From: Escherichia phage vB_EcoS_ULIM2
Strand: one strand, 5' to 3'
Sequence record: OQ850291
Length of the DNA: 51,534 nt
Each line of letters starts with the position of its first letter. Position 1 is the stretch's first letter. A program made the position numbers and the translations under genes. Below are positions 11,337-51,513 of this stretch, in pieces. The notes beneath the pieces were generated by a model. It saw only the letters and a program-made list of their open reading frames with translations. It did not search any database and was not told where the DNA came from.

Positions 11337-11343
11337 AACATAA

Positions 11344-11365
11344 GGGGCCAATCGGCCCCTTTTTT
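11344..11365. terminator. Terminator between convergent J-like gene and minus-strand gene
   Basis: GGGGCC-aatc-GGCCCC followed by TTTTTT. Confidence 0.6.
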
Positions 11366-14227: not shown

Positions 14228-14875
14228 ATGCAATTATCACCAGAAACAAACGAAATCCTTCCTGCCCTGTTTAACGCTCGCAACAAATTTGCGAAAGCAA
14301 AGAAGGACGCAAAAAACAATCACCTGAAAAATTCATACGCAACTCTTGATGCGATGATGGCAGCGGTTAGTCCGGCGCTAACCGACAACGATATTATGAT
14401 CCTGCAATCAATGCTTGATACAAGCACGGAAACGACCTTCCATCTTGAGACGATGTTGATTCATAAATCCGGGCAGTGGGCCAAATTCTTCATGATGATG
14501 CCGATTGCAAAACGCGATCCGCAAGGCGTAGGTTCCGCAATGACGTATGCTCGACGTTACTCATTAGCCGCAGCGCTGGGGATTAGCCAGAGTGATGACG
14601 ATGCTCAGCTTGCAGTGAAATCTGTCAAGGACTGGAAAAAAGAACTTGATGCGTGTGAAGATATCGAATCACTGAAAGAGGTATGGGCTAACGCTTACCG
14701 CCAGACGGACACGGCGAGCAAGTCAATCATTCAGGATCACTACAACGCATTAAAGGCTAAGTTTGAGATCGGTAAAGCTCGCGGCATTCGACCTGCACAA
14801 CCAGAACAGAAAAAACAGGTTGAAGCAACGAGCGCGAAGCCTGTAAAATCTCAATCAATCACAAACTTCGAATAA
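14228..14875 (+). CDS. erf: Erf-family single-strand annealing protein (215 aa)
   Basis: NARNKFAKAKKD...NSYATLD and GSAMTYARRYSLAAALGISQSDDDA resemble conserved Erf blocks (P22 Erf TSSYARKYCLNGLFGIDDAKD); ATG at 14228 with AGGAG RBS. Confidence 0.7.
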   Translation: MQLSPETNEILPALFNARNKFAKAKKDAKNNHLKNSYATLDAMMAAVSPALTDNDIMILQSMLDTSTETTFHLETMLIHKSGQWAKFFMMMPIAKRDPQGVGSAMTYARRYSLAAALGISQSDDDAQLAVKSVKDWKKELDACEDIESLKEVWANAYRQTDTASKSIIQDHYNALKAKFEIGKARGIRPAQPEQKKQVEATSAKPVKSQSITNFE

Positions 14876-15353: not shown

Positions 15354-15380
15354 GCCCCGCATCAGCGGGGCATATTTTTA
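15354..15380. terminator. Bidirectional terminator between SSB and the convergent tail fibre gene
   Basis: GCCCCGC-atca-GCGGGGC with A-rich and T-rich flanks on either side. Confidence 0.6.
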
Positions 15381-17738
15381 CTTGCTCTCAAGTAATGATT
15401 TTACAATCAACTTCAATTCCTCAACATCATTCCTTAATGAAATAATTTCTTCCTCCTGCTCTTTACACACTTGCACCGCGTATGCGGCAATAGCACCATA
15501 ATCCACCTGGAAGAAGCGCTGACGCCCTACCAGTTCCTCGCCGTCTTGCGTTGGCCCCGCAAGGTGTTCGTAGTCTTCGAACGTACTCACCGCTTCCGGC
15601 ACAACGTCCATTACTTCCTGCGCAATAACCCCGGCGTAAGGCATGCCGTCTTTTTTCATGGTGTAGGTATAACCGCCCATCTTAGCAAGGCCAGCGCGGG
15701 CGTTCTCGATCGGCTTGATGTTATCCTTCAACTCGCGGTCAGACGACTGGTTTACCGTCGTACAGTTTACCGTTCCGTTAACGTTCATCTGTCTAGTGCC
15801 GTTGCCGTTATACTGGGCGTAAAAAAGCCACCCCGGACCATCTTCAAGCCCAAACTCAATAACCGACGCTCGATCTGACCCGTTGCCCCACAATTTGAAG
15901 GTTGCAGGGTGTGACGAGTTGCCGTCGTTAAGCATTTTGAAATACTTGCCACTTGGTCGACTGATCTCCAAGCTCGTCGCTTGAACGTATGCTTTTCCCG
16001 CGAAATTCTTAGTTCCGAGTACGACGCCGTCAGTTATCAATTCAACTTTAGAAGACGTTATATCGTTCAGGAATATCGCGCTCGTCCCGGTGTCCTTCCC
16101 TAAAAACCAAAGACGTTTTCCTGCGGAGTTGTACCCTGTTACGTGCAGTGGTTGGTTGTTTGTTGCGGCGGTGCCGTCGATACGAAATCCTCCATTGACT
16201 GTCGTAACTTTAATGCTAGGTACGGTCATAGCAAAAGTGCCACTGGCGGCAAGTCCATTATACGCGATCAGCTTGTTGTCATATGCAAGCTCACCATTGT
16301 CCCTTAATTGCAAGAATTTATTAGATGCCGAGTTGTGAATAACTACATCATTGGCGCCAGGTTCAATAGTTATGATCTTTCCGTCAACGGAAGCTCGCAC
16401 CGCAGGTCCAGTAATTACTCCGGAAAAAGTCGGCGACGACCCCGCGTTATACAATTCGTACCACTCTGACCAATTTCCAGTTGCCCCATTACTAATCCAG
16501 CGCATCCACCGACGCCCGTCTAAGTATGTTGTGTAAGTCTGCACGCAGCTTGTCACGACGTTAGCACCAGTACGCTGCACCAGCAAGCAACCAGCCGAGG
16601 CGACTGGATAGTTACGCTCAGGGGTGGCGTTCGACGACATGGACTGAAAGTAAAATCCAGCCTTATCCCCTTTCAATACGTTAAGGTCTTCGCTTACCAA
16701 CGTCGCCCGTCTTTCATGCATTGCCTGAAGGTTGGCGCGCGCTCCCTGGTCGTTAGATGCTCCCGTCCCGCCGTCCGCGATCGCCACGTCCCCGTTTGAC
16801 CCCAGCTTAGCCAGCTCGATAGCGCTCACATTCCCCGAGGAGCCGTTGATAGCGTTATTGTTTCCCGAGAAAACCTTCACGCGAGAGGTCTGGAAGTCAA
16901 CGTTAAACGCAAAAAATGTGTCACCAGCGCCACCGCAAATACCCGGACCGTATTTGAACGGGGTCATTTGCCCGGATGGAAACTGACTTATATCGTCAAC
17001 TCGCCAAAAACCGCCTTTGACCGAATCGCGCAACCTTTTTAGCATATCAGCAACGCTTGTTGGGGCGTTGATAGTGGCTCCAACTTTATCAACCTTTTTT
17101 GACGCATCAGCGCTATTCGCGAATTGCTCAGCTTCGTCTCGAAATCCTTTAGCCTGGTCTTTCGCGGTTATGGCCTGCGATCTAGCTGTCTCAGCGGCGG
17201 TCTTTGCGCTGTTGGCGTTCGTCTCACTGGTCTTTGCTGCATTCTTGCTTTGCTCTGCCGATGTTGCAAATTGACTTGCGGCATCACGGCTTGCAGCGGA
17301 TGCGTCGCGAGCAAGCTCAGCTTGATTCTGCGCAGCTTCTGCGGCTGATTTGTTCGCCTTAATTTCCTCAACGATACGGTTAAGGTTATCCATATCCAGA
17401 CTCGCAATGATATCCATTGCCCCGGCAATCTCAGTCTCTTTGCTCTGGTAGTACCGAAGCGTCTCAGCAACGTTTTGAGCCAACCCGTTAACGGTCAATG
17501 AATCGTTAAGCAAGATTACATACTTACCGTCAGCGGCAGTCTGACCATCCGTAGAGATAGCCTTTAACTCTGTGTCGCTCACAATATCGCTGATTACCGC
17601 CAGCTTAATTGGTTGCTCCAGGAATACGATAGTTGCACCGACTCGAATCAAAGCAAGCTGATCTTTCCATTTTGTGTCGGTTCCGTGAACCGTGCCGTCT
17701 GCATCCATTGATGCTGTACCGCGTCTATATAAAGCCAT
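15378..17738 (-). CDS. Tail fibre protein with C-terminal intramolecular chaperone domain (786 aa)
   Basis: Ala/Ser/Gln-rich coiled N-terminal region; C-terminal SSDRELKDNIKPIENARAGLAKMGGYTYTMK resembles the peptidase S74 autocleaving chaperone domain; ATG at 17738 with AAGGAG. Confidence 0.65.
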   Translation of the reverse strand: MALYRRGTASMDADGTVHGTDTKWKDQLALIRVGATIVFLEQPIKLAVISDIVSDTELKAISTDGQTAADGKYVILLNDSLTVNGLAQNVAETLRYYQSKETEIAGAMDIIASLDMDNLNRIVEEIKANKSAAEAAQNQAELARDASAASRDAASQFATSAEQSKNAAKTSETNANSAKTAAETARSQAITAKDQAKGFRDEAEQFANSADASKKVDKVGATINAPTSVADMLKRLRDSVKGGFWRVDDISQFPSGQMTPFKYGPGICGGAGDTFFAFNVDFQTSRVKVFSGNNNAINGSSGNVSAIELAKLGSNGDVAIADGGTGASNDQGARANLQAMHERRATLVSEDLNVLKGDKAGFYFQSMSSNATPERNYPVASAGCLLVQRTGANVVTSCVQTYTTYLDGRRWMRWISNGATGNWSEWYELYNAGSSPTFSGVITGPAVRASVDGKIITIEPGANDVVIHNSASNKFLQLRDNGELAYDNKLIAYNGLAASGTFAMTVPSIKVTTVNGGFRIDGTAATNNQPLHVTGYNSAGKRLWFLGKDTGTSAIFLNDITSSKVELITDGVVLGTKNFAGKAYVQATSLEISRPSGKYFKMLNDGNSSHPATFKLWGNGSDRASVIEFGLEDGPGWLFYAQYNGNGTRQMNVNGTVNCTTVNQSSDRELKDNIKPIENARAGLAKMGGYTYTMKKDGMPYAGVIAQEVMDVVPEAVSTFEDYEHLAGPTQDGEELVGRQRFFQVDYGAIAAYAVQVCKEQEEEIISLRNDVEELKLIVKSLLESK

Positions 17739-18835: not shown

Positions 18836-19288
18836 TTAACTAAAAATGCTATTGGTCGTTCCGATATCTTCCTTCTTCACAACCCGCATGAATTTCTTGT
18901 TCTTGCATCGCTTCTCAAGGCACTTGCCGTTACCATCAAACTTGAGGTCGAATCTCAGCCATGCTGCGCGGTATCCTTTACACCCCTGTCGGCGGTAAGC
19001 GCGATGCGCAGCCTCAGCACCTTGCCACGAAATCATGTTGCGTTCTTTCCAGCCTTGCACCGTCTGATTTGTTACTTTTAGTGCCTTTGCGCATGCCGCA
19101 GGGCCACCATAATATTCGATAAGCGCATCAAGTCGTGCTCGCAATCCAGCGCGTGTTTCTTCTTTATGAATATAGAATCCGCAGCGCTGTCGTGGCTTTT
19201 TGTCTTTACCGCGTCGAGTTCCGTTGTTACCATTGATGTGACGTTTATCGATTTCACCAGTTGACTCCGCGATGCGTTGAATACTCAT
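18836..19288 (-). CDS. Putative DNA-binding protein with Cro/YdaS-like helix-turn-helix (150 aa)
   Basis: AKALKVTNQTVQGWKERN resembles Cro/YdaS-type HTH; basic termini; a palindromic box lies in its leader. Confidence 0.45.
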   Translation of the reverse strand: MSIQRIAESTGEIDKRHINGNNGTRRGKDKKPRQRCGFYIHKEETRAGLRARLDALIEYYGGPAACAKALKVTNQTVQGWKERNMISWQGAEAAHRAYRRQGCKGYRAAWLRFDLKFDGNGKCLEKRCKNKKFMRVVKKEDIGTTNSIFS

Positions 19289-25892: not shown

Positions 25893-26293
25893 TGAAACTT
25901 AAGAAAACGTGCATTGCAATTACGGTTGCTGTTGGTGTGATTTCTCTATCCGGTTGCTCGACGGCATCTGCTCTGAGTGGTTTACTTTCTGACTCCCCGG
26001 ATGTTACGGCGCAGGTTGGCGCTGAGAACACAAAACAACTAGCAGGAGTCACAGCAAAGGCAGATGATAAGCGAGAAGTGAAGGTGAGTGATTCAAATAT
26101 TGGAAAGATTGACTCATCTGTCAAGAAGTCTGTGGAGGTATCAACCATTCAGGCCAATACGGTTAACGCTGAAAGCATCACAGTAACAAAACCGGAAAAC
26201 TGGTACGATGCAATTGTAGGATGGACTCTCGTTTTCATTGGCCTATTGCTGGTTTATTTTTCAATTCGTAAGGACGAAAAAAAGGAGGCGTAA
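25889..26293 (+). CDS. Unimolecular spanin candidate (134 aa)
   Basis: N-terminal lipoprotein signal with lipobox LSGC plus C-terminal TMD ([13 protein letters not shown]); last gene of the lysis cassette. Confidence 0.55.
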
Positions 26294-26307
26294 GCCTCCT
26301 TTCTTTT
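26284..26307. terminator. Bidirectional terminator between the lysis cassette and the minus-strand accessory block
   Basis: GGAGGC-gtaa-GCCTCC with A-run upstream and T-rich run downstream. Confidence 0.6.
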
Positions 26308-31471: not shown

Positions 31472-31514
31472 ACTATACCCCGATTCCCTTCGGGGAGTTT
31501 AGCAATTCGTGCTA
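31472..31514 (-). promoter_or_regulatory. Box-type promoter (leftward)
   Basis: Minus strand TAGCAC-N3-TTGCTA (31500-31514), 22 bp, TATAGT (31472-31477) within inverted repeat CCCCGAAGGG/AATCGGGG. Confidence 0.5.
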
Positions 31515-31850
31515 TTAAGCAATGTCGAACTCAGCGGCATATGCTTCCTTGATGCCAGCTTCACGCATGGTGCGCTTGCTGATTTTGCGCGGGAATTTGT
31601 ACTGACTGTTAGGCATAACCCACCAGAAGCAGGCAGTTTCACGAACGATTTCATATTTACCGTAACGGGTGAATATATCGCGTTCTGAATCCGGCTGATT
31701 AACACAGGTCAGGAATTTAGCTGCCTTGTCTTCAGTTTTGATTTCTTCCCATACGAAAGAATCCATACCGTTAACATTGCAAGCTACCATGATGTACTCA
31801 ACGCCGTTTTCGATTTTGATGATTTCGTTACCGCGATTTTCGTATTTCAT
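31515..31850 (-). CDS. Hypothetical protein (111 aa)
   Basis: ATG at 31850 preceded by CAGGAGCAGGAAA RBS region and leader CATCGAAACGAG. Confidence 0.5.
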   Translation of the reverse strand: MKYENRGNEIIKIENGVEYIMVACNVNGMDSFVWEEIKTEDKAAKFLTCVNQPDSERDIFTRYGKYEIVRETACFWWVMPNSQYKFPRKISKRTMREAGIKEAYAAEFDIA

Positions 31851-34120: not shown

Positions 34121-34450
34121 ATGTTTACTAATATGTTTGATCCGAAGGTGATGGAAAGACGAAAACTGGAAAGTGAGAAGCAGGAAGAGAACATCAAGAA
34201 GATAGCTGATGCCGTGACTGGTAAAAAATTAATCAAAGTAAACCTTAATACCATTGGCTCAGCGTACGACGTAAGAGGTCTTGGCAAGAAAGAGGCGTCA
34301 GTGAAGGTTCTTAGGCTTATTCACGAAATTAAGAATCAGTACAAGATAACCCTAAAGATGAAAAGCCTTGAGGTTCCGCACTGTGAGCTTGTGAACATCA
34401 CGGAGCCGGAAGGGTGGGAAATAACCGACGTCGAGTTTATCGTAGAATAG
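34121..34450 (+). CDS. Hypothetical protein (110 aa)
   Basis: ATG at 34121 with AAGGAGAGG RBS. Confidence 0.5.
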   Translation: MFTNMFDPKVMERRKLESEKQEENIKKIADAVTGKKLIKVNLNTIGSAYDVRGLGKKEASVKVLRLIHEIKNQYKITLKMKSLEVPHCELVNITEPEGWEITDVEFIVE

Positions 34451-34490
34451 CACTTTTTGTTAAAACCGGATCGGGATAACCTGGTATAGT
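34448..34490 (+). promoter_or_regulatory. Box-type promoter
   Basis: TAGCAC (34448-34453), TTGTTA (34457-34462), 22 bp, TATAGT (34485-34490); perfect 8-bp inverted repeat GGGATAAC/GTTATCCC (34473-34496) around the -10. Confidence 0.55.
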
Positions 34491-39749: not shown

Positions 39750-40322
39750 ATGAAAACAGCTATCATTTTAAACGGCGCACCAGGAGTGGGTAAGGACACT
39801 ATCGGATGCATCCTGGCCGATACTTACGAGCACGTAGCGCTCCGCAGCTTCAAGGCTCCGATGTTTGATATTGCCCGAGCAATATTGGGTGAGGCTAATT
39901 TCGAATATTTCATGTTCTTGTATGAGGACCGTCGCTATAAAGAAGAACCAGCATCAATCCTGAACGGTAAAAGCCCGCGCCAGTTTATGATCTGGATTAG
40001 CGAAGAAGTCATCAAGCCGCAGTTCGGAAATCGCTTCTTCGGCATGCGAGCGGAAAGCAAGGTGAAAGAGTCTCACTCTCTTTCGGTATTTACTGACGGT
40101 GGATTCAAAGACGAAGTTTTGCAGATGATTGAAGGTGATATCCAGGTCAAGCTATGTCGAATCCATCGCAACGGTTGCAACTTTGACAACGACAGCCGCG
40201 ACTATATCTATCTTGACGATATGATTGGGGTCAACGGTTATCAGGAATGTGACTTCTTTTCTGTCGAAGGCCATCCAGAAATTACCGCTCAGCACATAGC
40301 CGCCACGTTCATCAATAAATAG
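39750..40322 (+). CDS. P-loop nucleotide kinase, dNMP kinase-like (190 aa)
   Basis: N-terminal GAPGVGKDT P-loop, as in phage deoxynucleoside monophosphate kinases (T4 gp1 has SGKDT). Confidence 0.5.
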   Translation: MKTAIILNGAPGVGKDTIGCILADTYEHVALRSFKAPMFDIARAILGEANFEYFMFLYEDRRYKEEPASILNGKSPRQFMIWISEEVIKPQFGNRFFGMRAESKVKESHSLSVFTDGGFKDEVLQMIEGDIQVKLCRIHRNGCNFDNDSRDYIYLDDMIGVNGYQECDFFSVEGHPEITAQHIAATFINK

Positions 40323-40362
40323 CACGAATTGCTAAAACGTCGGTGGGGTGATTTGATATAGT
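40320..40362 (+). promoter_or_regulatory. Box-type promoter
   Basis: TAGCAC (40320-40325), TTGCTA (40329-40334), 22 bp, TGATATAGT ending at 40362. Confidence 0.55.
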
Positions 40363-42079: not shown

Positions 42080-42088
42080 TAAATACTA

Positions 42089-42109
42089 ACCCGCTTCGGC
42101 GGGTTTTTT
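42089..42109 (+). terminator. Rho-independent terminator before the packaging module
   Basis: CCCGC-ttcg-GCGGG followed by 7 T. Confidence 0.6.
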
Positions 42110-42122
42110 TATGTCTGCAATA

Positions 42123-42146
42123 TGGTAAAATAGCACTAAATGTTAA
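42123..42146 (+). promoter_or_regulatory. Late promoter candidate with the palindromic box downstream of the -10
   Basis: TGgTAAAAT at 42123-42131 followed immediately by TAGCAC-N4-TGTTA (42131-42146); TerS ATG at 42164. Confidence 0.4.
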
Positions 42147-42163
42147 ACAAAGAGGATGGATTT

Positions 42164-44295: not shown

Positions 44296-44312
44296 TAAAT
44301 GAGATATAATTA

Positions 44313-44337
44313 GGGCTGTCAATTGACGGCCCTTTTT
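44313..44337 (+). terminator. Terminator/attenuator between terminase and portal genes
   Basis: GGCTGTCAA/TTGACGGCC palindromic stem followed by TTTTT. Confidence 0.5.
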
Positions 44338-44349
44338 ATTGGAGGAAAC

Positions 44350-45633
44350 ATGAAAATTGTTAAGCATGATGGATATAACGATATCTTTAACGGCGGCGCG
44401 GACGGATCGCCTAAGCCATTCTTTATGTCTGATGCATCATATCACGTCGGTTCTTTCTACAACGACAACGCAACCGCTAAGCGAATTGTGGATGTTATCC
44501 CGGAAGAGATGGTGACGGCTGGTTTTAAAATGTCAGGCGTTAAGGATGAAAAAGAGTTCAAGTCTTTATGGGATAGCTACAAGCTTGATTCAAGTCTGGT
44601 GGATCTTCTTTGTTGGGCGCGACTTTACGGTGGCGCGGCGATGGTGGCAATCATCAAAGACAACCGGATGTTAACCAGTCAGGCAAAGCCTGGAGCCAAA
44701 CTTGAAGGCGTACGAGTTTACGATCGATTTGCTATCACTGTTGAAAAGCGAGTCACTAATGCAAGATCCCCTCGCTATGGTGAGCCTGAAATTTACAAGG
44801 TATCCCCTGGCGACAATATGCAGCCGTATCTGATTCATCACTCAAGAGTCTTTATTGCTGATGGTGAACGAGTAACGCAACAAGCAAGAAAGCAGAATCA
44901 AGGATGGGGAGCTTCGGTATTGAACAAGTCACTGATTGATGCAATCTGTGACTATGATTACTGTGAATCTCTGGCTACTCAGATCTTGCGACGTAAGCAA
45001 CAGGCTGTATGGAAGGTCAAAGGTCTTGCCGAAATGTGCGATGATGACGACGCTCAGTATGCGGCGCGCCTGCGACTTGCTCAGGTTGATGATAACTCCG
45101 GTGTAGGTCGCGCGATCGGTATCGACGCTGAGACGGAAGAATACGACGTTCTCAACTCTGATATCAGCGGAGTCCCTGAGTTCTTATCAAGCAAGATGGA
45201 CCGCATTGTCTCCCTATCCGGGATTCATGAGATTATCATCAAGAATAAGAACGTAGGCGGCGTATCAGCGAGCCAAAACACGGCGCTTGAGACTTTCTAT
45301 AAGTTAGTCGATCGCAAGCGCGAGGAAGATTACAGGCCGCTTCTTGAGTTCTTGTTGCCGTTCATTGTTGATGAGGAAGAGTGGTCGATCGAGTTTGAGC
45401 CTTTGTCTGTTCCTAGTAAGAAAGAGGAATCAGAGATCACGAAGAATAACGTTGAGTCAGTCACGAAGGCTATCACTGAGCAAATCATCGATCTGGAAGA
45501 AGCTCGCGACACATTGCGATCCATTGCCCCTGAGTTCAAACTCAAGGATGGTAATAACATCAACATTCGCGAACCGGAAGAAACAACCGAGCCGGAACCG
45601 GGGTTAGGGGAGAAGTTAGAAGATGAAAATTAA
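44350..45633 (+). CDS. Portal protein (427 aa)
   Basis: Size and position directly after TerL; GGAGG RBS and ATG at 44350; acidic C-terminus. Confidence 0.65.
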   Translation: MKIVKHDGYNDIFNGGADGSPKPFFMSDASYHVGSFYNDNATAKRIVDVIPEEMVTAGFKMSGVKDEKEFKSLWDSYKLDSSLVDLLCWARLYGGAAMVAIIKDNRMLTSQAKPGAKLEGVRVYDRFAITVEKRVTNARSPRYGEPEIYKVSPGDNMQPYLIHHSRVFIADGERVTQQARKQNQGWGASVLNKSLIDAICDYDYCESLATQILRRKQQAVWKVKGLAEMCDDDDAQYAARLRLAQVDDNSGVGRAIGIDAETEEYDVLNSDISGVPEFLSSKMDRIVSLSGIHEIIIKNKNVGGVSASQNTALETFYKLVDRKREEDYRPLLEFLLPFIVDEEEWSIEFEPLSVPSKKEESEITKNNVESVTKAITEQIIDLEEARDTLRSIAPEFKLKDGNNINIREPEETTEPEPGLGEKLEDEN

Positions 45634-46375
45634 TGGCGTTGCAACACAGTGGCGCTATCCTGAAATGAGCGAGCGCGCAATGTCGCGCTCCCTACAGGAT
45701 GTTGCAGCCAAACTAACTGAAAAAATGCGTGACGAATTAAAGCCGATGAAATTTGACGCTACCGACGAAGAGATAGATCAGGCAGAAAGGTCATTGCTTG
45801 ATTACGTTGAATCACTCATCGCTCCGATTATTGGTTCTCTATCATCCGTTGCGCTCACGATCTATAAATTCAACTCTAAGCAGTGGCTGCGTATCGCTCG
45901 CAATGCTGGAGGTAAGAAGAATCAAGCCGTGATGCTACTTTCCCTGATTGGTCCTACCGCTGCCGAAAGCTGGTACTCAGGACAATATAATCTGTGGCGA
46001 TCGCAGGTGACTACTTCTATCAGGAAATTTGCCGCCAACATGGTTACTGATTTCACTGATAAACTTCGTGCAGCATCCGGTCAGGGTAAAAGCAAGGATT
46101 TTGTTGTTGAACTGGCTAAGGAGCGATTTGGTATTTACCGAAGCTGGGCCAAAAACAGGGCGTCGGGAATTGTCGGAACATGGAACAGTAGACTGATGCG
46201 GCAGCGCATAAAAGACGCTGGTGTATCTTACTATTTCTGGCGCGGGGTGATGGATTTACGCGAACGTGAAAAACATGTAAGATGGGAAGGTAAGCGCATA
46301 GCGGTAGATTCCGATCATGTATTCCCGGGTGAGGAATACAATTGCCGCTGTTGGGCTGTTCCATCGTTCACATAA
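45623..46375 (+). CDS. Head morphogenesis protein (250 aa)
   Basis: Position after the portal gene with overlapping start; C-terminal CRCW motif. Family not verified. Confidence 0.45.
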   Translation: MKINGVATQWRYPEMSERAMSRSLQDVAAKLTEKMRDELKPMKFDATDEEIDQAERSLLDYVESLIAPIIGSLSSVALTIYKFNSKQWLRIARNAGGKKNQAVMLLSLIGPTAAESWYSGQYNLWRSQVTTSIRKFAANMVTDFTDKLRAASGQGKSKDFVVELAKERFGIYRSWAKNRASGIVGTWNSRLMRQRIKDAGVSYYFWRGVMDLREREKHVRWEGKRIAVDSDHVFPGEEYNCRCWAVPSFT

Positions 46376-46390
46376 AGGAGGTGATGAATA

Positions 46391-46873
46391 GTGAATTTTA
46401 ATGATTTGTTTTACCATGAAGGAAAGGATCTCATATGGAAGGTTAGCACATCAAGAAGGGTAAAGGTTGGTGATGTAGCAGGATGGAAGGATGAGCTAGG
46501 GTATGTTTATGTAAGAGTTAACGGTAAGCTAATTCCTGCTCATAGGATAATATGGGAGATGCACTACGGAAAAATTCCAGAAGGTATGGAGATAGACCAC
46601 ATAAATCATATAACCGACGATAACAGGATTGAAAACTTAAGACTGGTAACGAGGAAAGATAACTGCAAAAACGTATCCATGAGCAAATCTAACAAGAGCG
46701 GAGTGGTTGGAGTTAGCTGGTGCAAAAGGACTTGCAAATGGTTTGCATCAATTAGAGTTGATAGAAAGGAAAAGTTTTTGGGTAGATATGATAAAATTGA
46801 GGATGCAGCAGCAGCAAGAAAGGCGGCTGAGTTAAAATACAATTTTCACAAAAATCACGGGAGTAAAAAATGA
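46391..46873 (+). CDS. HNH homing endonuclease with AP2-type DNA-binding domain (160 aa)
   Basis: IDHINHITDDNRIENLRLVTRKDN HNH motif, then AP2-like SGVVGVSWCKRTCKWFASIRV...AAAARKAAE; AT-rich gene with AGG/AGA/ATA codons unlike its neighbours. Confidence 0.75.
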   Translation: MNFNDLFYHEGKDLIWKVSTSRRVKVGDVAGWKDELGYVYVRVNGKLIPAHRIIWEMHYGKIPEGMEIDHINHITDDNRIENLRLVTRKDNCKNVSMSKSNKSGVVGVSWCKRTCKWFASIRVDRKEKFLGRYDKIEDAAAARKAAELKYNFHKNHGSKK

Positions 46874-47982
46874 AGGCAAAGCAAAGATTCGATTCAGTAA
46901 AAATCAAGGCGCACTTTGATGATAACGGTTTTTTAGTTGACCGCCCAATCGTGGCGCGAATCGGCGCTCAGGTTTACAAAACGCCGCACGGCGATCGAGT
47001 TGAGTTCCGTCCGGCGTCCGAAGTTTTCAAGCAAGATTCCTTGCAAAGTTTTGCAGGCAAGCCGATCACAGTCGGTCACGTAACGGTAACTCCGCAGAAT
47101 GCTAAGGACGTTGTTGTCGGATCGTGTGCTGGCGCTGGTATTGCTTCAGGGGTTGGCGTTGAAGTTCCTTTGAGTATTTACAGCGACTACGCGATCAGCA
47201 AGGCTAAAGCAAAAGAAGCAGGTGAATTATCTGTTGGTTATACTTCGGTTGACATTGATAAGCCTGGTTGGGGTTCAAATGAGACTGGAGAATATATCTT
47301 CGAAGAGGATATGAAGCAGGACGAAGCGCCGCCTGAAGGCTGGGTGAAATTTGACGCGGTACAGACCAATATCAAGGTCAACCATATTGCCCTAGTTTTT
47401 AAAGGTCGTGCGGGAATTGCTAAATTAAATCTTGATGCCGAACAGGAGTTCCCGTATGATAATAACGTTCAATTAACTAACGAGGACAAGCAAATGAAAA
47501 AAATTAAGATCGACTCAGTTGATGTGGAAGTAACCGAAGACGTTGCGAACCATATCGAAAAATTAACCGCGCAGATTGCCACCATTCAGGGGAAAGCTGA
47601 TGGCTTCGAAGCTGAGCGCGATGCGCTGAAGGTTAAGGTTGACTCCCTGCCGGAACTGGTTAAGGCCGAGGTAGAGAAGCAAAAAGCCGATGCCGCCGCA
47701 CGCGCAGAAGTTACCGCAGTAGCAGAAACCGCAGGTGTCAAACATGATGGTCTTGATATCAAAGACGTCAAGATTGCCGTGGTTAAAGCCATGCTTGATA
47801 AAGATGTTAGTGAAAAATCAGACGCATATATCGACGCTATGTTTGATGTTGCTAAAGATTCTGATATCATGGCTATTCAGCGTAAAGCAGTAAAAGGCGA
47901 CTCTATCGAAGGCGGCAAGCCGGAAGAGAAAAACGACGCCGCTCCTGTTACGCCAAATTCACGTTTAAGCAAAGTAATGTAA
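46870..47982 (+). CDS. Putative head scaffolding protein (370 aa)
   Basis: Position between portal/morphogenesis and capsid genes; C-terminal half is a long E/K/A-rich coiled-coil-like region. Confidence 0.45.
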   Translation: MKAKQRFDSVKIKAHFDDNGFLVDRPIVARIGAQVYKTPHGDRVEFRPASEVFKQDSLQSFAGKPITVGHVTVTPQNAKDVVVGSCAGAGIASGVGVEVPLSIYSDYAISKAKAKEAGELSVGYTSVDIDKPGWGSNETGEYIFEEDMKQDEAPPEGWVKFDAVQTNIKVNHIALVFKGRAGIAKLNLDAEQEFPYDNNVQLTNEDKQMKKIKIDSVDVEVTEDVANHIEKLTAQIATIQGKADGFEAERDALKVKVDSLPELVKAEVEKQKADAAARAEVTAVAETAGVKHDGLDIKDVKIAVVKAMLDKDVSEKSDAYIDAMFDVAKDSDIMAIQRKAVKGDSIEGGKPEEKNDAAPVTPNSRLSKVM

Positions 47983-47993
47983 GGAGAAATATC

Positions 47994-48470
47994 ATGGCAC
48001 AGATTAACGCATCTTATCAGCGCGATATGGCGATCGCCCTTCCGGGTATGGTTGCCGATACTTCCAAGTACAATATTGACGGCGCCTGCGTCGTTAATGA
48101 AGGAGATGTTTTTGTTGGCGCTGCCGTACAGGTTGTTCAAGCTCAGGCGGTTGATGGTCATAAGTTAGTTAAGGCTCTTACTACCGGAACCACTCCTTAC
48201 GGCGTGGCAATCCGATCTCACTGGCAGACTGTTAATGCTCAAAATCAGATGGTTTACGAAGATGGCGGCGCTATCAACGTGATGACTTCAGGCCGAGTAT
48301 GGATGCTTTCCAAATCTACCGAAGCACCAACTTTCGGCTCTGCCGTTAAACTTGATGTTGATGGTCAAGAGAAATCTGATGGCACGATCGAAACAACCTG
48401 GACCTACGCTGGCGGCTGGACTAAATACAAAGATATTCAGCTTGTAGAGGTTCAGTTGCATCAACTGTAA
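47994..48470 (+). CDS. Capsid-associated protein, paralog A (158 aa), putative decoration protein
   Basis: N-terminal 100 residues align by eye with the next gene (ADTSKYNIDGACV / SDTSTYNIDGSCV; TTPYGVAIRS / GTPYGIAFRS). Confidence 0.45.
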   Translation: MAQINASYQRDMAIALPGMVADTSKYNIDGACVVNEGDVFVGAAVQVVQAQAVDGHKLVKALTTGTTPYGVAIRSHWQTVNAQNQMVYEDGGAINVMTSGRVWMLSKSTEAPTFGSAVKLDVDGQEKSDGTIETTWTYAGGWTKYKDIQLVEVQLHQL

Positions 48471-48485
48471 TTAGCATTTAATATA

Positions 48486-48515
48486 AGGACTATCCTTTTG
48501 GATAGTCCTTTTTTT
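48486..48515 (+). terminator. Strong rho-independent terminator between the two paralogs
   Basis: Perfect 10-bp stem AGGACTATCC/GGATAGTCCT followed by 7 T. Confidence 0.7.
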
Positions 48516-48529
48516 ATGGAGAAATTATT

Positions 48530-49297
48530 ATGGCTTACGAAAATTTGTTCTTGCGCCCAGCGTGTCCTGGCAATCTTTCTGATACTTCAACCTACAATAT
48601 TGATGGATCTTGTGTTGCTCAGGGTGATATTGAGTTCGGCGCTGCGGTTCAGGTTGCCGGGATCGTTGATGGAGTGAAGGTTGTAAAGGCTCTTGATGAT
48701 GGTGGAACTCCTTACGGTATCGCTTTCCGTTCTCAATATGAACACCTGAGCGGTAAAATCTTAGACGGTGAAGTTTGCAACGTCGTTTCTCATGGTCGCA
48801 TGTGGACCCTCACTTCTCTTGATGAATCTCCGGCCTTATTCTCAAAGTTACAATTTGGATCTGGTGGAGTTGTTACTGGTGGATCTGGTTCCGCAGGATG
48901 GACCTTTGCGGGTGGCTTTGTTAAGCACGAAGACGGTCACATTATTGAGGTTCAGGTGAAACAAAATGCTTTCATCGTTCCACCGCCGCCGCCCCCTGTC
49001 GTTCTTGTTGAATCCGCTACAATCACCACTAACAAGGAAAGTCCTCAGCCAAACAATGTTACGATCCAGTGTGTAGCTAATGTTCTTCCGGTTAATGCAA
49101 CTGACAAGACTGGTAAGTGGTCAATCGATGCCACCAATATCGCCACCATCGATCCGGACTCAGGTCTTGTGACTCCTGTTGGTGGAGAAACAGTCGGTGA
49201 TTTCAATATCACATGGACGGCTAACGATGACAGCAAGACGACGGCGACCATTGCTTATCGCGTAGAAGCAGTGCCAACGCCAGAGGTTGATGTATAA
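48530..49297 (+). CDS. Capsid-associated protein, paralog B, with poly-proline linker and Ig-like (Big_2-type) C-terminal domain (255 aa)
   Basis: Shared N-terminal domain with paralog A; PPPPPPVVLV linker; C-terminal region with alternating beta-like pattern typical of bacterial Ig-like domains. Confidence 0.45.
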   Translation: MAYENLFLRPACPGNLSDTSTYNIDGSCVAQGDIEFGAAVQVAGIVDGVKVVKALDDGGTPYGIAFRSQYEHLSGKILDGEVCNVVSHGRMWTLTSLDESPALFSKLQFGSGGVVTGGSGSAGWTFAGGFVKHEDGHIIEVQVKQNAFIVPPPPPPVVLVESATITTNKESPQPNNVTIQCVANVLPVNATDKTGKWSIDATNIATIDPDSGLVTPVGGETVGDFNITWTANDDSKTTATIAYRVEAVPTPEVDV

Positions 49298-49318
49298 CAT
49301 AAAAACACTTTAACGCTT

Positions 49319-49333
49319 TAACAAAAAGTGCTA
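49319..49333 (-). promoter_or_regulatory. Palindromic box in leftward orientation at the end of paralog B
   Basis: Reads TAACAAAAAGTGCTA on the plus strand; candidate -10 TATACA 22 bp to the left. Confidence 0.35.
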
Positions 49334-49341
49334 TTATTGAA

Positions 49342-49367
49342 GCCGTGAACATAATCACGGCTTTTTT
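49342..49367 (+). terminator. Rho-independent terminator before the major capsid gene
   Basis: GCCGTGA-acataa-TCACGGC followed by TTTTTT. Confidence 0.6.
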
Positions 49368-49388
49368 ATTAACTACGGAGAAGTAATC

Positions 49389-50348
49389 ATGACTACTAAA
49401 AAATTTGATGAAGCAGATAAAAGCAATGTTGAAATGTATCTGATCCAGGCTGGCGTAAAACAGGATGCAGCCGCAACGATGGGTATTTGGACCGCTCAGG
49501 AACTACACCGCATCAAAAGCCAGTCCTATGAAGAAGACTACCCGGTCGGCTCCGCTCTACGCGTATTCCCGGTTACAACCGATCTTTCTCCGACTGATAA
49601 GACGTTTGAATACATGACCTTTGATAAGGTTGGTACTGCGCAGATTATCGCGGACTACACTGACGACCTGCCGCTTGTTGATGCCCTGGGTACTTCTGAG
49701 TTCGGTAAAGTGTTCCGCCTGGGTAACGCGTACCTGATTTCAATTGACGAAATCAAAGCAGGTCAGGCAACTGGTCGTCCGCTGTCAACTCGTAAGGCAA
49801 GCGCATGTCAGTTAGCACACGACCAACTGGTTAACCGCCTGGTGTTCAAAGGTTCAGCGCCGCACAAGATCGTGTCCGTGTTCAATCATCCGAACATCAC
49901 CAAAATTACCTCCGGTAAGTGGATGGATGGCGCAACTCAGAAACCGGAAACGGCTGAAGCTGAATTGACTCAAGCGATCGAAACCATCGAGACGATTACT
50001 CGGGGCCAACACCGAGCAACCAACATCCTGATTCCGCCTTCCATGCGTAAGGTTTTGGCGATTCGTATGCCTGAGACTACTATGTCTTATCTGGACTATT
50101 TCAAGTCTCAGAACTCCGGTATCGAAATCGACTCTATCGCAGAGCTTGAGGATATCGACGGCGCAGGCACTAAAGGTGTGCTGGTGTACGAAAAGAATCC
50201 GATGAACATGTCCATCGAGATCCCGGAAGCATTTAACATGCTGCCAGCGCAGCCGAAAGACTTGCACTTTAAAGTGCCTTGCACCTCTAAATGTACTGGT
50301 CTTACAATTTATCGCCCGATGACTATTGTCTTAATCACTGGCGTGTAA
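49389..50348 (+). CDS. Major capsid protein (319 aa)
   Basis: Position in the head module, flanked by terminators on both sides, GGAG RBS; size typical of HK97-fold capsid proteins. Confidence 0.6.
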   Translation: MTTKKFDEADKSNVEMYLIQAGVKQDAAATMGIWTAQELHRIKSQSYEEDYPVGSALRVFPVTTDLSPTDKTFEYMTFDKVGTAQIIADYTDDLPLVDALGTSEFGKVFRLGNAYLISIDEIKAGQATGRPLSTRKASACQLAHDQLVNRLVFKGSAPHKIVSVFNHPNITKITSGKWMDGATQKPETAEAELTQAIETIETITRGQHRATNILIPPSMRKVLAIRMPETTMSYLDYFKSQNSGIEIDSIAELEDIDGAGTKGVLVYEKNPMNMSIEIPEAFNMLPAQPKDLHFKVPCTSKCTGLTIYRPMTIVLITGV

Positions 50349-50354
50349 TATTAT

Positions 50355-50383
50355 AGGGGCTAACTTAGTTAGTCCCTTTTTTT
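50355..50383 (+). terminator. Rho-independent terminator after the major capsid gene
   Basis: 10-bp stem AGGGGCTAAC/GTTAGTCCCT followed by 7 T. Confidence 0.7.
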
Positions 50384-50398
50384 ATTGGAGAAATCAAA

Positions 50399-50689
50399 AT
50401 GGCTAAAGAAAAAACTGTTGTTATCGTAAACGTTGGTGTAGCTCTTCAGATGTTCCGCATGGAAGATGGAACTTTCGCAAAGGTTCTCCCTGATCAGGAA
50501 ATCACCTTGCCTGCAAGTGTTCTTGATCTTCCAGGCATTCGGTGCTTGATTCACCGCGAAGAGTTGGAAGTAAAAGACAACAGTGCGCTAAACCGTGAGA
50601 TTCGTCAGGAAATGGAGAAGGCTAAAAAACCTGATCCGTGGGATAAGATGAGCGTAAAAGAGCTTGAAGACGGCGGCGAATACTATTAA
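50399..50689 (+). CDS. Hypothetical structural-module protein (96 aa)
   Basis: GGAG RBS; bracketed by two terminators. Confidence 0.45.
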   Translation: MAKEKTVVIVNVGVALQMFRMEDGTFAKVLPDQEITLPASVLDLPGIRCLIHREELEVKDNSALNREIRQEMEKAKKPDPWDKMSVKELEDGGEYY

Positions 50690-50695
50690 TCAACA

Positions 50696-50718
50696 AGGCG
50701 CTTAATGCGCCTTTTTTT
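50696..50718 (+). terminator. Rho-independent terminator
   Basis: AGGCGC-ttaat-GCGCCT followed by 7 T. Confidence 0.65.
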
Positions 50719-50731
50719 ATAGGTGGAAATT

Positions 50732-51142
50732 ATGGATCAAGAAACATTAAACAAAGTGGTTGAGCAAATGCGAAAGCTGGTTCCGGCACTTCGTAAGGTT
50801 CCAGACGAAACGCTTTATGCGTGGGTAGAAATGGCTGAGCTATTTGTATGTCAGAAGACCTTTAAAGATGCATACGTCAAGGCGCTTGCTCTTTATGCAT
50901 TGCACCTTGCTTTCCTTGATGGGGCGCTAAAAGGTGAAGATGAGGATCTTGAATCGTACTCACGACGCGTTACGTCATTCTCCCTGAACGGTGAATTTAG
51001 CCAGACTTTCGGAGAGGTGACGAAGAACCAGTCAGGAAACATGATGCTTTCGACGCCGTGGGGTAAGATGTTCGAACAGCTTAAAGCGCGACGCCGTGGT
51101 CGATTCGCATTAATGACAGGACTCCGTGGAGGATGCCACTAA
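50732..51142 (+). CDS. Putative head-tail connector/head completion protein (136 aa)
   Basis: ATG at 50732 with AGGTGG RBS; position after the capsid genes. Confidence 0.4.
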   Translation: MDQETLNKVVEQMRKLVPALRKVPDETLYAWVEMAELFVCQKTFKDAYVKALALYALHLAFLDGALKGEDEDLESYSRRVTSFSLNGEFSQTFGEVTKNQSGNMMLSTPWGKMFEQLKARRRGRFALMTGLRGGCH

Positions 51143-51513
51143 TGAACTACTCACAGATTGAAAGGATGGCTCGCAAAGGCGTTGCTTTCTTCACCGATCC
51201 GTCAAGACCTATGAACCTGATAAAACAAGGTGAATACGGATATGATGAAAACGGATTTGAGATCCCACCAATGGAACAGGTTATTCCAATATCCGGCGCG
51301 ACGCGAAGACCTAACGCGCGTGAGATTGACGGTGAAACTATCCGCGCCTCAGATATTTTGGGGATCTTCAATAATGATCATGAAATAAACGAAGGTGACT
51401 ATATAGAGATTGATGGCATTCGTCATGTTGTCGTTGATGCTCGCCCGGTTCAGGCGTCACTGGAACCAATCGCCTATCGTCCAGTATTGCGGAGGGTATC
51501 AGTAGGTGGCTAA
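51142..51513 (+). CDS. Putative head-tail adaptor protein (123 aa), crosses the repeat junction
   Basis: ATG at 51142 with GGAGG RBS; its last 106 nt lie inside the terminal repeat and are duplicated at positions 1-106. Confidence 0.4.
   Translation: MNYSQIERMARKGVAFFTDPSRPMNLIKQGEYGYDENGFEIPPMEQVIPISGATRRPNAREIDGETIRASDILGIFNNDHEINEGDYIEIDGIRHVVVDARPVQASLEPIAYRPVLRRVSVGG

Follow-up and report, generated by a model that had tools for sequence, protein, structure and literature searches.

The closest described counterpart of the locus studied here is the head-gene block of phage T1 (AY216660.1, 13744-16470: gp49, gp48, gp47 and gp46). In this block the T1 record already has four matching terminators, the two decoration proteins and a promoter upstream of the capsid gene; in total it lists 17 terminators, of which these are four, and only four promoters, of which the capsid-gene promoter is one. 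The record of phage SA30RD annotates the terminators and the same capsid-gene promoter in a similar manner. According to PMC11447400, the 2004 T1 genome paper (Roberts et al.) described late "transcriptons" that are flanked by terminators and contain promoters. The products of the block are also known in structural detail, since cryo-EM of the T1 capsid (Chen 2025, PMC11945409; PDB 9kzj, 9kmg and 9kmh) found the orthologs of both decoration paralogs on a T=7 shell of 415 gp47 copies, where they make up 80 homotrimers of gp49 and 60 heterotrimers, each with one gp48 and two gp49 subunits.

The window, that is, the whole 51,534-nucleotide stretch of Escherichia phage vB_EcoS_ULIM2 that was analyzed, belongs to a Tunavirus with ~92% nucleotide identity to T1 and the T1-group phages. 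Its head region is a T1-type block in which four terminators lie between two cement genes, the capsid gene and a 96-aa gene, and it is largely ordinary: gene order is the same as in T1, with ~91% nucleotide identity over the block. As the T1 record carries all of this arrangement, it is already known and is not a new discovery. The window differs from T1 in having TTAACG instead of TTGACG as the -35 element before the capsid gene, an extra HNH endonuclease gene (inserted between the MuF-like and protease genes, upstream of the cement genes) and small differences in hairpin sequence. The features discussed below are as follows.

44312-44338, plus strand: terminator after the large terminase gene; 9-bp stem, -18.6 kcal/mol, z -5.2
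47994-48470, plus strand: paralog A, cement/decoration protein of 158 aa, ortholog of T1 gp49; PF22758, 104.8 bits
48485-48510 (stem), T-run to 48515, plus strand: T_A, the strongest of the four terminators; 11 bp, -17.9 kcal/mol, z -4.9
48530-49297, plus strand: paralog B, cement protein of 255 aa, ortholog of T1 gp48; PF22758, 65.3 bits
49301-49337, plus strand: P_MCP, predicted σ70 promoter; A-tract, TTAACG, 16-nt spacer, extended -10 TGcTATTAT
49316-49334, no strand assigned: repeat copy with the palindrome TAACA-N5-TGCTA, forming the P_MCP spacer and inverted relative to most other copies
49339-49364 (stem), Ts to 49367, plus strand: hairpin 2 (T_B); 10 bp, -15.0 kcal/mol, z -7.0
49389-50348, plus strand: major capsid protein, HK97 fold, ortholog of T1 gp47; PF09950, 213 bits
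50355-50377 (stem), Ts to 50383, plus strand: T_MCP, directly 3' of the capsid gene; 10 bp, -13.8 kcal/mol, z -3.8
50399-50689, plus strand: 96-aa DUF7444 protein, ortholog of T1 gp46; PF24231, 110 bits; phrog_2716
50695-50713 (stem), Ts to 50718, plus strand: T_g46, before the head-tail connector genes; 7 bp, -12.0 kcal/mol, z -3.6

The four hairpin-plus-T-run terminators proposed in the initial annotation were recovered at coordinates agreeing within 1-3 nt. All four belong to the coding strand; the gaps between genes that hold them measure 33-91 nt, and each hairpin is immediately upstream of the next ribosome-binding site; that of paralog B, for example, directly follows T_A. Each is a stable, G+C-containing stem-loop (-12.0 to -17.9 kcal/mol, z -3.6 to -7.0), and the G·U pairs confined to the plus-strand fold numbered 16, 9, 14 and 1 in the four hairpins, versus 0. 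T_A, T_MCP and T_g46 have 5-6 Ts after the stem. Hairpin 2 has three Ts past its stem, which together with the last three of the stem itself make a run of six. The density of the arrangement, which had been called unusual, was borne out by a strict scan (hairpin of 30 nt or less, dG of -11 or below, TTTT within 2 nt): across the whole window it returned 11 plus-strand sites, against 0.9 in shuffled sequences, and 4 of the 11 fall in the 2.7-kb block, which is 5.3% of the window. A permissive scan (dG of -9 or below, hairpins up to 46 nt) did not discriminate, with 76 sites on each strand, and was set aside for the strict one. The statement that every gene is bracketed by terminators holds for the 3' side, where each gene is followed by one, but not for the 5' side of paralog A, which starts 11 nt downstream of the protease/scaffold gene. 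A is the last gene of an operon (portal, MuF-like protein, HNH endonuclease, protease/scaffold, A) whose start lies past the terminator at 44312-44338.

Comparison with related loci separated these hairpins into two kinds. A hairpin-plus-T-run occupies the T_A junction in 52 of 53 loci (29 distinct sequences), the T_MCP junction in 51 of 52 (26 distinct hairpins) and the T_g46 junction in 43 of 51 (20 distinct hairpins), while at tightly packed junctions it was seen in 0/63, 1/63 and 1/62 loci; none was found at the MuF-protease or protease-C1 junctions (63 loci). The T_A, T_MCP and T_g46 terminators (14237-14269, 16107-16137 and 16445-16470 in the T1 record) thus hold their position across the Drexlerviridae while their sequence turns over, and the keeping of T-runs next to very different hairpins is as expected of true intrinsic terminators. 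Hairpin 2 differs in kind from these three, being homologous and covarying across genera. In a MAFFT alignment, 90.5% of its cells were paired and 6 of 10 pairs showed compensatory changes, a result reached in 0 of 500 shuffles, with 23-61% pairing in slid controls; one misaligned row (L020) was kept in and slightly lowers the paired fraction. The outer pairs covary as well (columns 9/32 and 10/31). Its T-run is strong only in the T1 group and is weak or absent in many genera (e.g., loci L048, L039 and L020), so termination cannot be its sole conserved role. A DNA-level palindromic operator is disfavored as an explanation of hairpin 2, because the hairpin shows compensatory changes and its G·U pairs are valid only on the plus-strand RNA.

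The gene products were assigned by homology. Paralogs A and B are 43% identical over 143 aa (E 5e-33) and both exceed the 27-bit cut-off of the Pfam family Phage_cement (PF22758), in agreement with the proposal, here followed up by pairwise alignment, that the two genes preceding the capsid gene share an N-terminal domain. B consists of a cement N-domain (residues ~1-150), a PPPPPP linker (151-156; nt 48980-48997) and an Ig-like Big_2 domain at ~164-240 (PF02368, 31.3 bits against a cut-off of 22.8 over residues 164-240); A has no PPPPPP and gave no Big_2 match, as the initial annotation had noted for these two features. This C-terminal module is exchangeable, the Ig domain being absent or replaced in sister genera. 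The suggestion that both are decoration-type proteins is likewise upheld by PF22758 and by the presence of their T1 orthologs in the virion. A matches PDB 9kmg_a/9kzj over all 158 residues (two differences in the alignment, E 1.5e-102) and B matches 9kzj_H and 9kmh_ak over its full length (E ~1e-158). By this near-identity to the T1 chains, both are predicted to form trimers that occupy the 3-fold and quasi-3-fold axes of the capsid. The major capsid protein matches 9kmg_A (E 7.7e-211) and 9kzj_A (E ~1e-210). The 96-aa DUF7444 protein had no relative in a PDB sequence search, its single-sequence AF2 model had a pLDDT of 44, too low to be of use, and the proteins built into the T1 virion model do not include gp46.

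From the trimer counts in PMC11945409, the ratio of A to B to capsid protein is 360:60:415 per T1 capsid. Judging from Figure 2A of Chen et al., and not from a statement in their text, the heterotrimers probably occupy the penton-adjacent sites. These authors also reported that the N terminus of gp49 inserts into the inner capsid surface. B would contribute one subunit to each of the 60 heterotrimers, its N terminus, unlike that of A, staying out of the shell, and would display an exchangeable outward-facing module, the Ig domain. The second paralog may exist because each heterotrimer takes one such subunit without shell insertion while displaying the Ig module.

T4 Hoc and T5 pb10 are Ig-like capsid display proteins. 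Such displays, for which a role in weak adherence or adsorption has been proposed, are known from T5 and phicrAss001 (PMC11945409), and share with B an outward-projecting Big_2/Ig-like domain. Elsewhere the domain belongs to a separate protein at the capsomer center, whereas here it is fused by a poly-proline linker to a cement paralog, is present in only 60 copies and is absent or replaced in sister genera. The cement proteins themselves resemble the beta-tulip proteins lambda gpD, TW1 gp56, Pam3 gp6 and E217 gp24 in forming trimers on the axes of HK97-fold capsids, a fold comparison made by Chen et al. (PMC11945409). Unlike those, the T1-type system has two paralogs, both homo- and heterotrimers, and the exchangeable C-terminal module on the second.

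The predicted strong promoter in front of the capsid gene has the hexamers and spacing of a σ70 promoter, with the -35 TTAACG at 49310-49315 and the -10 at 49332-49337, and is conserved in relatives. Its consensus there (A-tract, TTGACn, 16-17 nt, TGcTATnAT) is kept in all 45 distinct junction sequences, drawn from 62 loci: the TTG of the -35 is present in 44, the TG extension in 43, and TATnnT and the upstream A-run in 45, always with a spacer of 16-17 nt. The TTAACG of this window is weaker than the TTGnnn of the other 44 sequences. Hairpin 2 starts 1 nt after the -10 in this window, and in all lineages with the hairpin its stem begins 0-2 nt past the -10. With the -10 abutting the hairpin, transcription from P_MCP is expected to begin within the stem, so that most of this RNA would evade the hairpin. 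In the single-copy clade the order is the canonical one of terminator, promoter and gene. The capsid gene, with its promoter, gene and terminator, is thus the clearest case of the T1 transcripton organization, which is found in this block; for the other modules, including the operon ending with A, the terminators are present and no promoter was identified. Comparable are the phi10 - gene 10 - T-phi cassette of T7 and, more generally, other single-gene capsid units, with a strong promoter dedicated to the most abundant structural gene and a terminator right behind that gene. The T1-type unit differs in using a promoter for the host σ70 instead of one for a phage RNA polymerase, and in the overlap of that promoter with an upstream-facing terminator hairpin.

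Taken together, we consider it probable (about 0.6) that intrinsic terminators cut the head region into small transcription units that roughly match the needs for capsid proteins. RNA arriving from upstream would cover the portal, the MuF-like protein, HNH, the protease/scaffold and A, and would mostly end at T_A, leaving B to be encoded only by read-through, in keeping with an A:B ratio of 6:1; A has, in addition, the stronger Shine-Dalgarno sequence. Hairpin 2 may then stop the residual read-through or provide a protected 3' end. The capsid gene would be transcribed mainly from P_MCP, with initiation ~7 nt past the -10 landing in the 5' arm of hairpin 2, so that the RNA would keep only ~-5 kcal/mol of stem and escape termination. 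T_MCP would yield an abundant, short, hairpin-ended capsid mRNA and limit flow into the 96-aa gene, and T_g46 would restrict flow into the low-copy connector genes. The low-copy portal and A, with 360 copies, lie in one terminator-free unit, so protein ratios must depend in part on translation or RNA stability. That the hairpins terminate, how efficiently they do so and where P_MCP transcripts start are predictions; our literature searches found no mapping of transcript 5' or 3' ends, Term-seq or Northern results for T1-like phages.

The initial annotation had proposed that successive partial termination sets a graded expression ratio. Spelled out as a model, a single upstream promoter and four leaky terminators would give steadily falling amounts of A, B, capsid protein and the 96-aa protein. 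The succession of four strong coding-strand terminators and the drop from 360 copies of A to 60 of B fit this proposal, but the capsid protein, with 415 copies, is encoded downstream of B and of two terminators. Abundance falls 6-fold and then rises ~7-fold across hairpin 2, and since a terminator cannot raise expression, this argues against monotonic attenuation, as does the canonical promoter immediately before the capsid gene in 45 of 45 lineages, annotated in T1. Neither observation favors the claim in this form, and we regard it as very improbable. A somewhat better, if still doubtful, candidate is that the hairpins serve mainly as 3'-end stabilizers or processing boundaries against 3' exonucleases, with attenuation secondary and with mRNA half-life and translation initiation as the chief determinants of the ratios. 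The genes of three abundant products, A, the capsid protein and the major tail protein (hairpin 1613-1630), do have a terminator behind them, hairpin 2 is conserved and covarying even where it has no T-run, and the Shine-Dalgarno of A (AAGGAG) is stronger than that of B (GGAG); that T-runs are conserved at three of the four junctions, next to hairpins of very different sequence, speaks against it. The two readings are nonetheless compatible, because a terminator hairpin also stabilizes the RNA that it ends.

Hairpin 2 might instead act on the RNA of P_MCP itself, either as an antiterminator-dependent terminator, of the PR'-QBE-tR' type of lambda, or as an mRNA-stabilizing 5' stem. In lambda, the Q-binding element lies between the -35 and the -10, and here a palindromic repeat of a protein-binding type has the same position, with the terminator directly after it. 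The outcome would depend on the start site, as the residual stem energies for starts from 49342 to 49346 are -11.9, -7.7, -5.3, -3.3 and 0 kcal/mol; an RNA started at 49342 would retain the -11.9 kcal/mol hairpin plus the U-run, and could self-terminate. However, with a stem that begins 0-2 nt past the -10, promoter-derived RNA cannot hold the outer 4-6 base pairs. These pairs covary nevertheless, which points to selection on RNA arriving from upstream and disfavors a promoter-proximal terminator like the lambda tR'. The repeat has ~29 copies, mostly at early genes, unlike the single Q site, and no Q-like gene was identified in a non-systematic look. We therefore judge an action on the promoter's own RNA unlikely, and retain as the preferred reading that hairpin 2 acts on upstream RNA while P_MCP supplies the capsid mRNA.

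The repeat that forms the P_MCP spacer is the most interesting lead of the region. It occurs in 29 copies in the window against 1.9 expected, mostly at early genes, and in 18 of the 29 it stands at a fixed 19-nt spacing from a TATAGT-like hexamer. The motif is the same as that of the direct repeats of phage TLS, aaATAGCACnnnTTGnTAAAA, which PMC11447400 places ~76 nt from start codons, notes also in T1, Rtp and Rogue1, and leaves open as to function (stoperator, enhancer or UP-like element). Additional to that description are the fixed TATAGT spacing, the internal palindrome and the inverted copy serving as the capsid-promoter spacer. The repeat was rejected as a general plus-strand promoter, as only the capsid-gene copy is flanked by TTGnnn and TATnnT. 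At ~18 putative TATAGT-type promoters of early or middle genes it would be centered near -42, the position of a class II activator.

Tentatively, and with low confidence, 49301-49367 could be viewed as a self-insulating switch, with the P_MCP spacer as its operator and one dimeric HTH protein of the phage able to bind the palindrome TAnCA-N5-TGCTA. The hairpin would stop upstream RNA, while P_MCP would start its own RNA inside the stem and so bypass the hairpin. Such a protein could activate early or middle promoters while keeping the capsid promoter in check, in the manner of lambda cI at PRM and PR. The P22 C2/Cro-like ORF on the minus strand (18836-19288) is one candidate for it, and there are two further small HTH candidates. 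Late in infection the protein would be released, for example through titration by the replicated genomes, and this would set the timing of capsid synthesis.

For the most part, the present findings restate the T1 annotation and the 2025 capsid structure, and they serve chiefly as a positive control for the scan. What exceeds the earlier descriptions that we found is two points, namely the stoichiometry as a target and the geometry of promoter, hairpin and repeat. The ratio of 360:60:415 is a quantitative target against which to explain the setting of structural-protein ratios by terminators, ribosome-binding sites and a nested promoter in a compact phage that uses only the host polymerase. The conserved way in which promoter and hairpin overlap and the fixed geometry of the repeat point to a possible uncharacterized regulator of T1-type transcription, which would bear on how T1 times early versus late expression without a polymerase or sigma factor of its own.

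The nucleotide sequence of vB_EcoS_ULIM2 is 90-92% identical to those of the T1-group coliphages Eco_BIFF, SH6, pSf-2, ADB-2, and T1 (Drexlerviridae, genus Tunavirus) across 2.9 kb around the capsid block. The genes and predicted signals of the region are listed below, with the z-score of each hairpin energy calculated against dinucleotide shuffles.

44323-45633, portal
45623-46375, MuF-like protein
46391-46873 (+), HNH endonuclease
46870-47982, protease/scaffold (DUF2213)
47994-48470, paralog A (first cement protein, T1 gp49)
48485-48515, predicted terminator T_A, -17.9 kcal/mol, z -4.9
48530-49297, paralog B (second cement protein, T1 gp48)
49301-49337, predicted σ70 capsid promoter
49339-49367, hairpin 2 (T_B), -15.0 kcal/mol, z -7.0
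49389-50348, major capsid protein (MCP, T1 gp47)
50355-50383, predicted terminator T_MCP, -13.8 kcal/mol, z -3.8
50399-50689 (+), DUF7444 protein (g46)
50695-50718, predicted terminator T_g46, -12.0 kcal/mol, z -3.6
50723-51142, DUF4054 adaptor
51133-51513, head-closure protein

The features of the capsid block are already known for T1. The same four terminators are marked in its curated GenBank record, as is a promoter lying between gp48 and the hairpin that precedes the capsid gene. Two products are named "capsid decoration protein" and "IgG-domain-containing decoration protein". The whole record holds 17 terminators, four of which fall in the capsid block, and just four promoters, the capsid promoter included. 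Phage SA30RD is annotated as T1 is. According to PMC11447400, the T1 genome paper of 2004 had already reported late "transcriptons" bounded by terminators and with promoters inside them. The HNH endonuclease gene (HNH_3, 80.8 bits; AP2, weak match) sits as an insertion between the MuF-like and protease genes, a junction with a gap of only 2 nt in T1, 477 nt in the related locus L024, and 300 nt in L050.

All four hairpin-plus-T-run elements of the initial annotation were found, at positions agreeing to 1-3 nt. A strict hairpin scan of the + strand of the whole window, used instead of a permissive scan that was dropped as uninformative, returned 11 sites (0.9 in shuffles), 4 of which fall within the 2.7-kb capsid block. 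The idea that every gene has its own terminator on each side did not hold for paralog A, which lies 11 nt after the protease gene with no hairpin between them, the nearest upstream terminator being at 44312. Elsewhere, the hairpins at 11342-11361, 15354-15371, and 26281-26302 score as terminators on both strands. Our literature search found no transcript-mapping data for T1-like phages.

Genes and junction hairpins were then mapped in each of 63 related loci, with MCP identities from 57% to 100%.

Hairpin-plus-T-run elements at gene junctions of the related loci
Paralog A to paralog B: 52/53 loci, 29 distinct hairpin sequences
MCP to g46: 51/52 loci, 26 distinct hairpin sequences
g46 to g45: 43/51 loci, 20 distinct hairpin sequences
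MuF-like to protease: 1/63 loci
Protease to paralog A: 0/63 loci
g45 to Hc1: 1/62 loci

Because their position is fixed while their sequences turn over, and because their G·U pairs are seen in the + strand fold only, the junction hairpins argue for RNA-level terminators under selection.

The junction preceding the capsid gene is organized differently. In every lineage its + strand carries an A-tract, a -35 element (TTGACG, TTGCAC, TTGAAC, or TTGACC), a spacer of 16-17 nt, and an extended -10, TGcTATnAT. Among 45 distinct sequences from 62 loci, the upstream A-run and TATnnT are present in all 45, TTG at -35 in 44, and the TG extension in 43. The exception at -35 is the window itself, with TTAACG (49310-49315) where the other 44 sequences have TTG and the T1 group TTGACG, so that the capsid promoter may be weaker in vB_EcoS_ULIM2. 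Hairpin 2 begins 0-2 nt past the -10 in all lineages having it, and is homologous across genera, with the core GCCGTTA..TAACGGC. In the covariation analysis, 90.5% of the cells were paired (23-61% in slid controls) and 6 of 10 pairs had changes on both sides, a score reached by none of 500 shuffles. Its T-run is strong in the T1 group only, being weak or absent elsewhere. In the clade with a single cement gene, terminator, promoter, and gene succeed one another in the usual way, and no hairpin follows the promoter.

Since the outer pairs covary, yet cannot occur in RNA started at the promoter, we infer that selection on hairpin 2 acts through RNA coming from gene B, with the hairpin serving as a terminator or a 3'-end protector. 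For transcripts starting at 49342, 49343, 49344, 49345, and 49346, the residual stem is worth -11.9, -7.7, -5.3, -3.3, and 0 kcal/mol, respectively. RNA begun at the canonical, predicted position, 49344, would keep only the -5.3 kcal/mol stem and should mostly escape termination, a step that would fail with initiation at 49342. The capsid gene would thus be an insulated, near-monocistronic cassette of predicted promoter, ribosome-binding site, ORF, and T_MCP.

Protein stoichiometry bears on the earlier proposal that partial termination sets a graded expression ratio. The T1 head (T=7) contains 415 gp47 and carries, as decoration, 80 homotrimers of gp49 plus 60 heterotrimers, each of one gp48 and two gp49 (Chen et al. 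2025, PMC11945409), from which we computed copy numbers of 360 for A, 60 for B, and 415 for MCP. The sixfold drop from A to B is compatible with a strong terminator after A; the Shine-Dalgarno sequence of A (AAGGAG) is also better than that of B (GGAG). The monotonic model fails at the capsid gene, because MCP is about sevenfold above B and terminators in series cannot raise expression.

The tandem duplication was borne out by pairwise alignment (143 aligned residues, 43% identical, E 5e-33). The assignment of two decoration-type proteins is also right: both belong to Phage_cement (PF22758), with PPPPPP (residues 151-156) and an Ig-like domain (Big_2) in B only. Both paralogs match solved components of the T1 virion: A over its full 158 residues (PDB 9kmg_a/9kzj, 2 differences in the printed alignment) and B at full length (9kzj_H and 9kmh_ak). 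The T1 decoration proteins have a beta-tulip fold like that of lambda gpD; the N-terminus of gp49 is inserted into the shell, while gp48 is on the surface only, its Ig domain appearing as weak protruding density and being proposed to aid adsorption (PMC11945409). The tandem pair occurs in the 53 loci with a scorable junction between the two genes. In the second paralog the C-terminal module varies and is exchangeable (loci L015-L063).

C-terminal module of the second cement protein
One Big_2: T1 group, L063
Two Big_2: L044 (338 aa)
Unassigned domain of about 110 aa: L018, L022, L045
No extra domain: L016, L017, L020

The clade L053-L062 (MCP 57% identical) has a single cement gene, of 167-170 aa, and may represent the state before duplication. 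It has no DUF7444 homolog, and about 440 nt of other sequence lie between its capsid and adaptor genes. The 96-aa DUF7444 protein (phrog_2716; family and group both of unknown function) has no relative in the PDB by sequence search, and its single-sequence structure model was unusable (pLDDT 44). The set of proteins modelled in the T1 virion does not include it, so it could help in assembly or packaging without being structural; its gene occupies the capsid-to-adaptor gap, which we take by positional analogy to be the place of lambda FI.

The spacer of the capsid promoter is a copy of a 19-nt genome-wide repeat, TTTTAnCAAnnnGTGCTAT, the reverse complement of the "DR" of phage TLS (PMC11447400). 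It holds the palindrome TAnCA-N5-TGCTA and is present in 29 copies at ≤3 mismatches in the window (1.9 expected), for example at 31497-31515, 34447-34465, and 40319-40337. Read in the direction of the genes, 18 of the 29 are followed at exactly 19 nt by a TAnnnT hexamer, in most cases TATAGT, and the repeat is 70-84 nt from the start codon. In T1, 15 of 24 copies are arranged in this way, none of them annotated as a promoter. The sites look like the real early or middle promoters of the phage. If TATAGT is the -10, the palindrome centre falls near -42. The copy at the capsid promoter is inverted and lies at about -25 to -11.

Another late-region copy (1675-1693, +), also inverted relative to the genes, follows a hairpin (1613-1630) located 3' of the gene for the major tail protein (879-1601); about 20 nt further on comes the ribosome-binding site for the tape-measure chaperone (gene at 1715-2032). 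This terminator-to-repeat order resembles that at the capsid gene of the single-cement clade, and the flanking hexamers are poor (-10 TATCAA). Past the terminator at 42088-42105 (+), an extended -10-like TGgTAAAAT runs directly into a copy at 42130-42148. That copy stops some 15 nt short of the start codon of the small terminase gene (42164, placed by homology to T1) and would cover the start site rather than -42.

The T1 record annotates a P22 C2-like transcriptional regulator, whose counterpart in the window is the 150-aa ORF at 18836-19288 (-). Its P22_Cro HTH match is sub-threshold (24.4 bits, cut-off 30.2), and its product is a candidate for binding the repeat. Only the overlap of the capsid promoter with hairpin 2 and the geometry of the repeat go beyond the descriptions we found. 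As a candidate reading, the repeat positions suggest a single dimeric regulator that may act in opposite ways at the -42 sites and at the capsid promoter.
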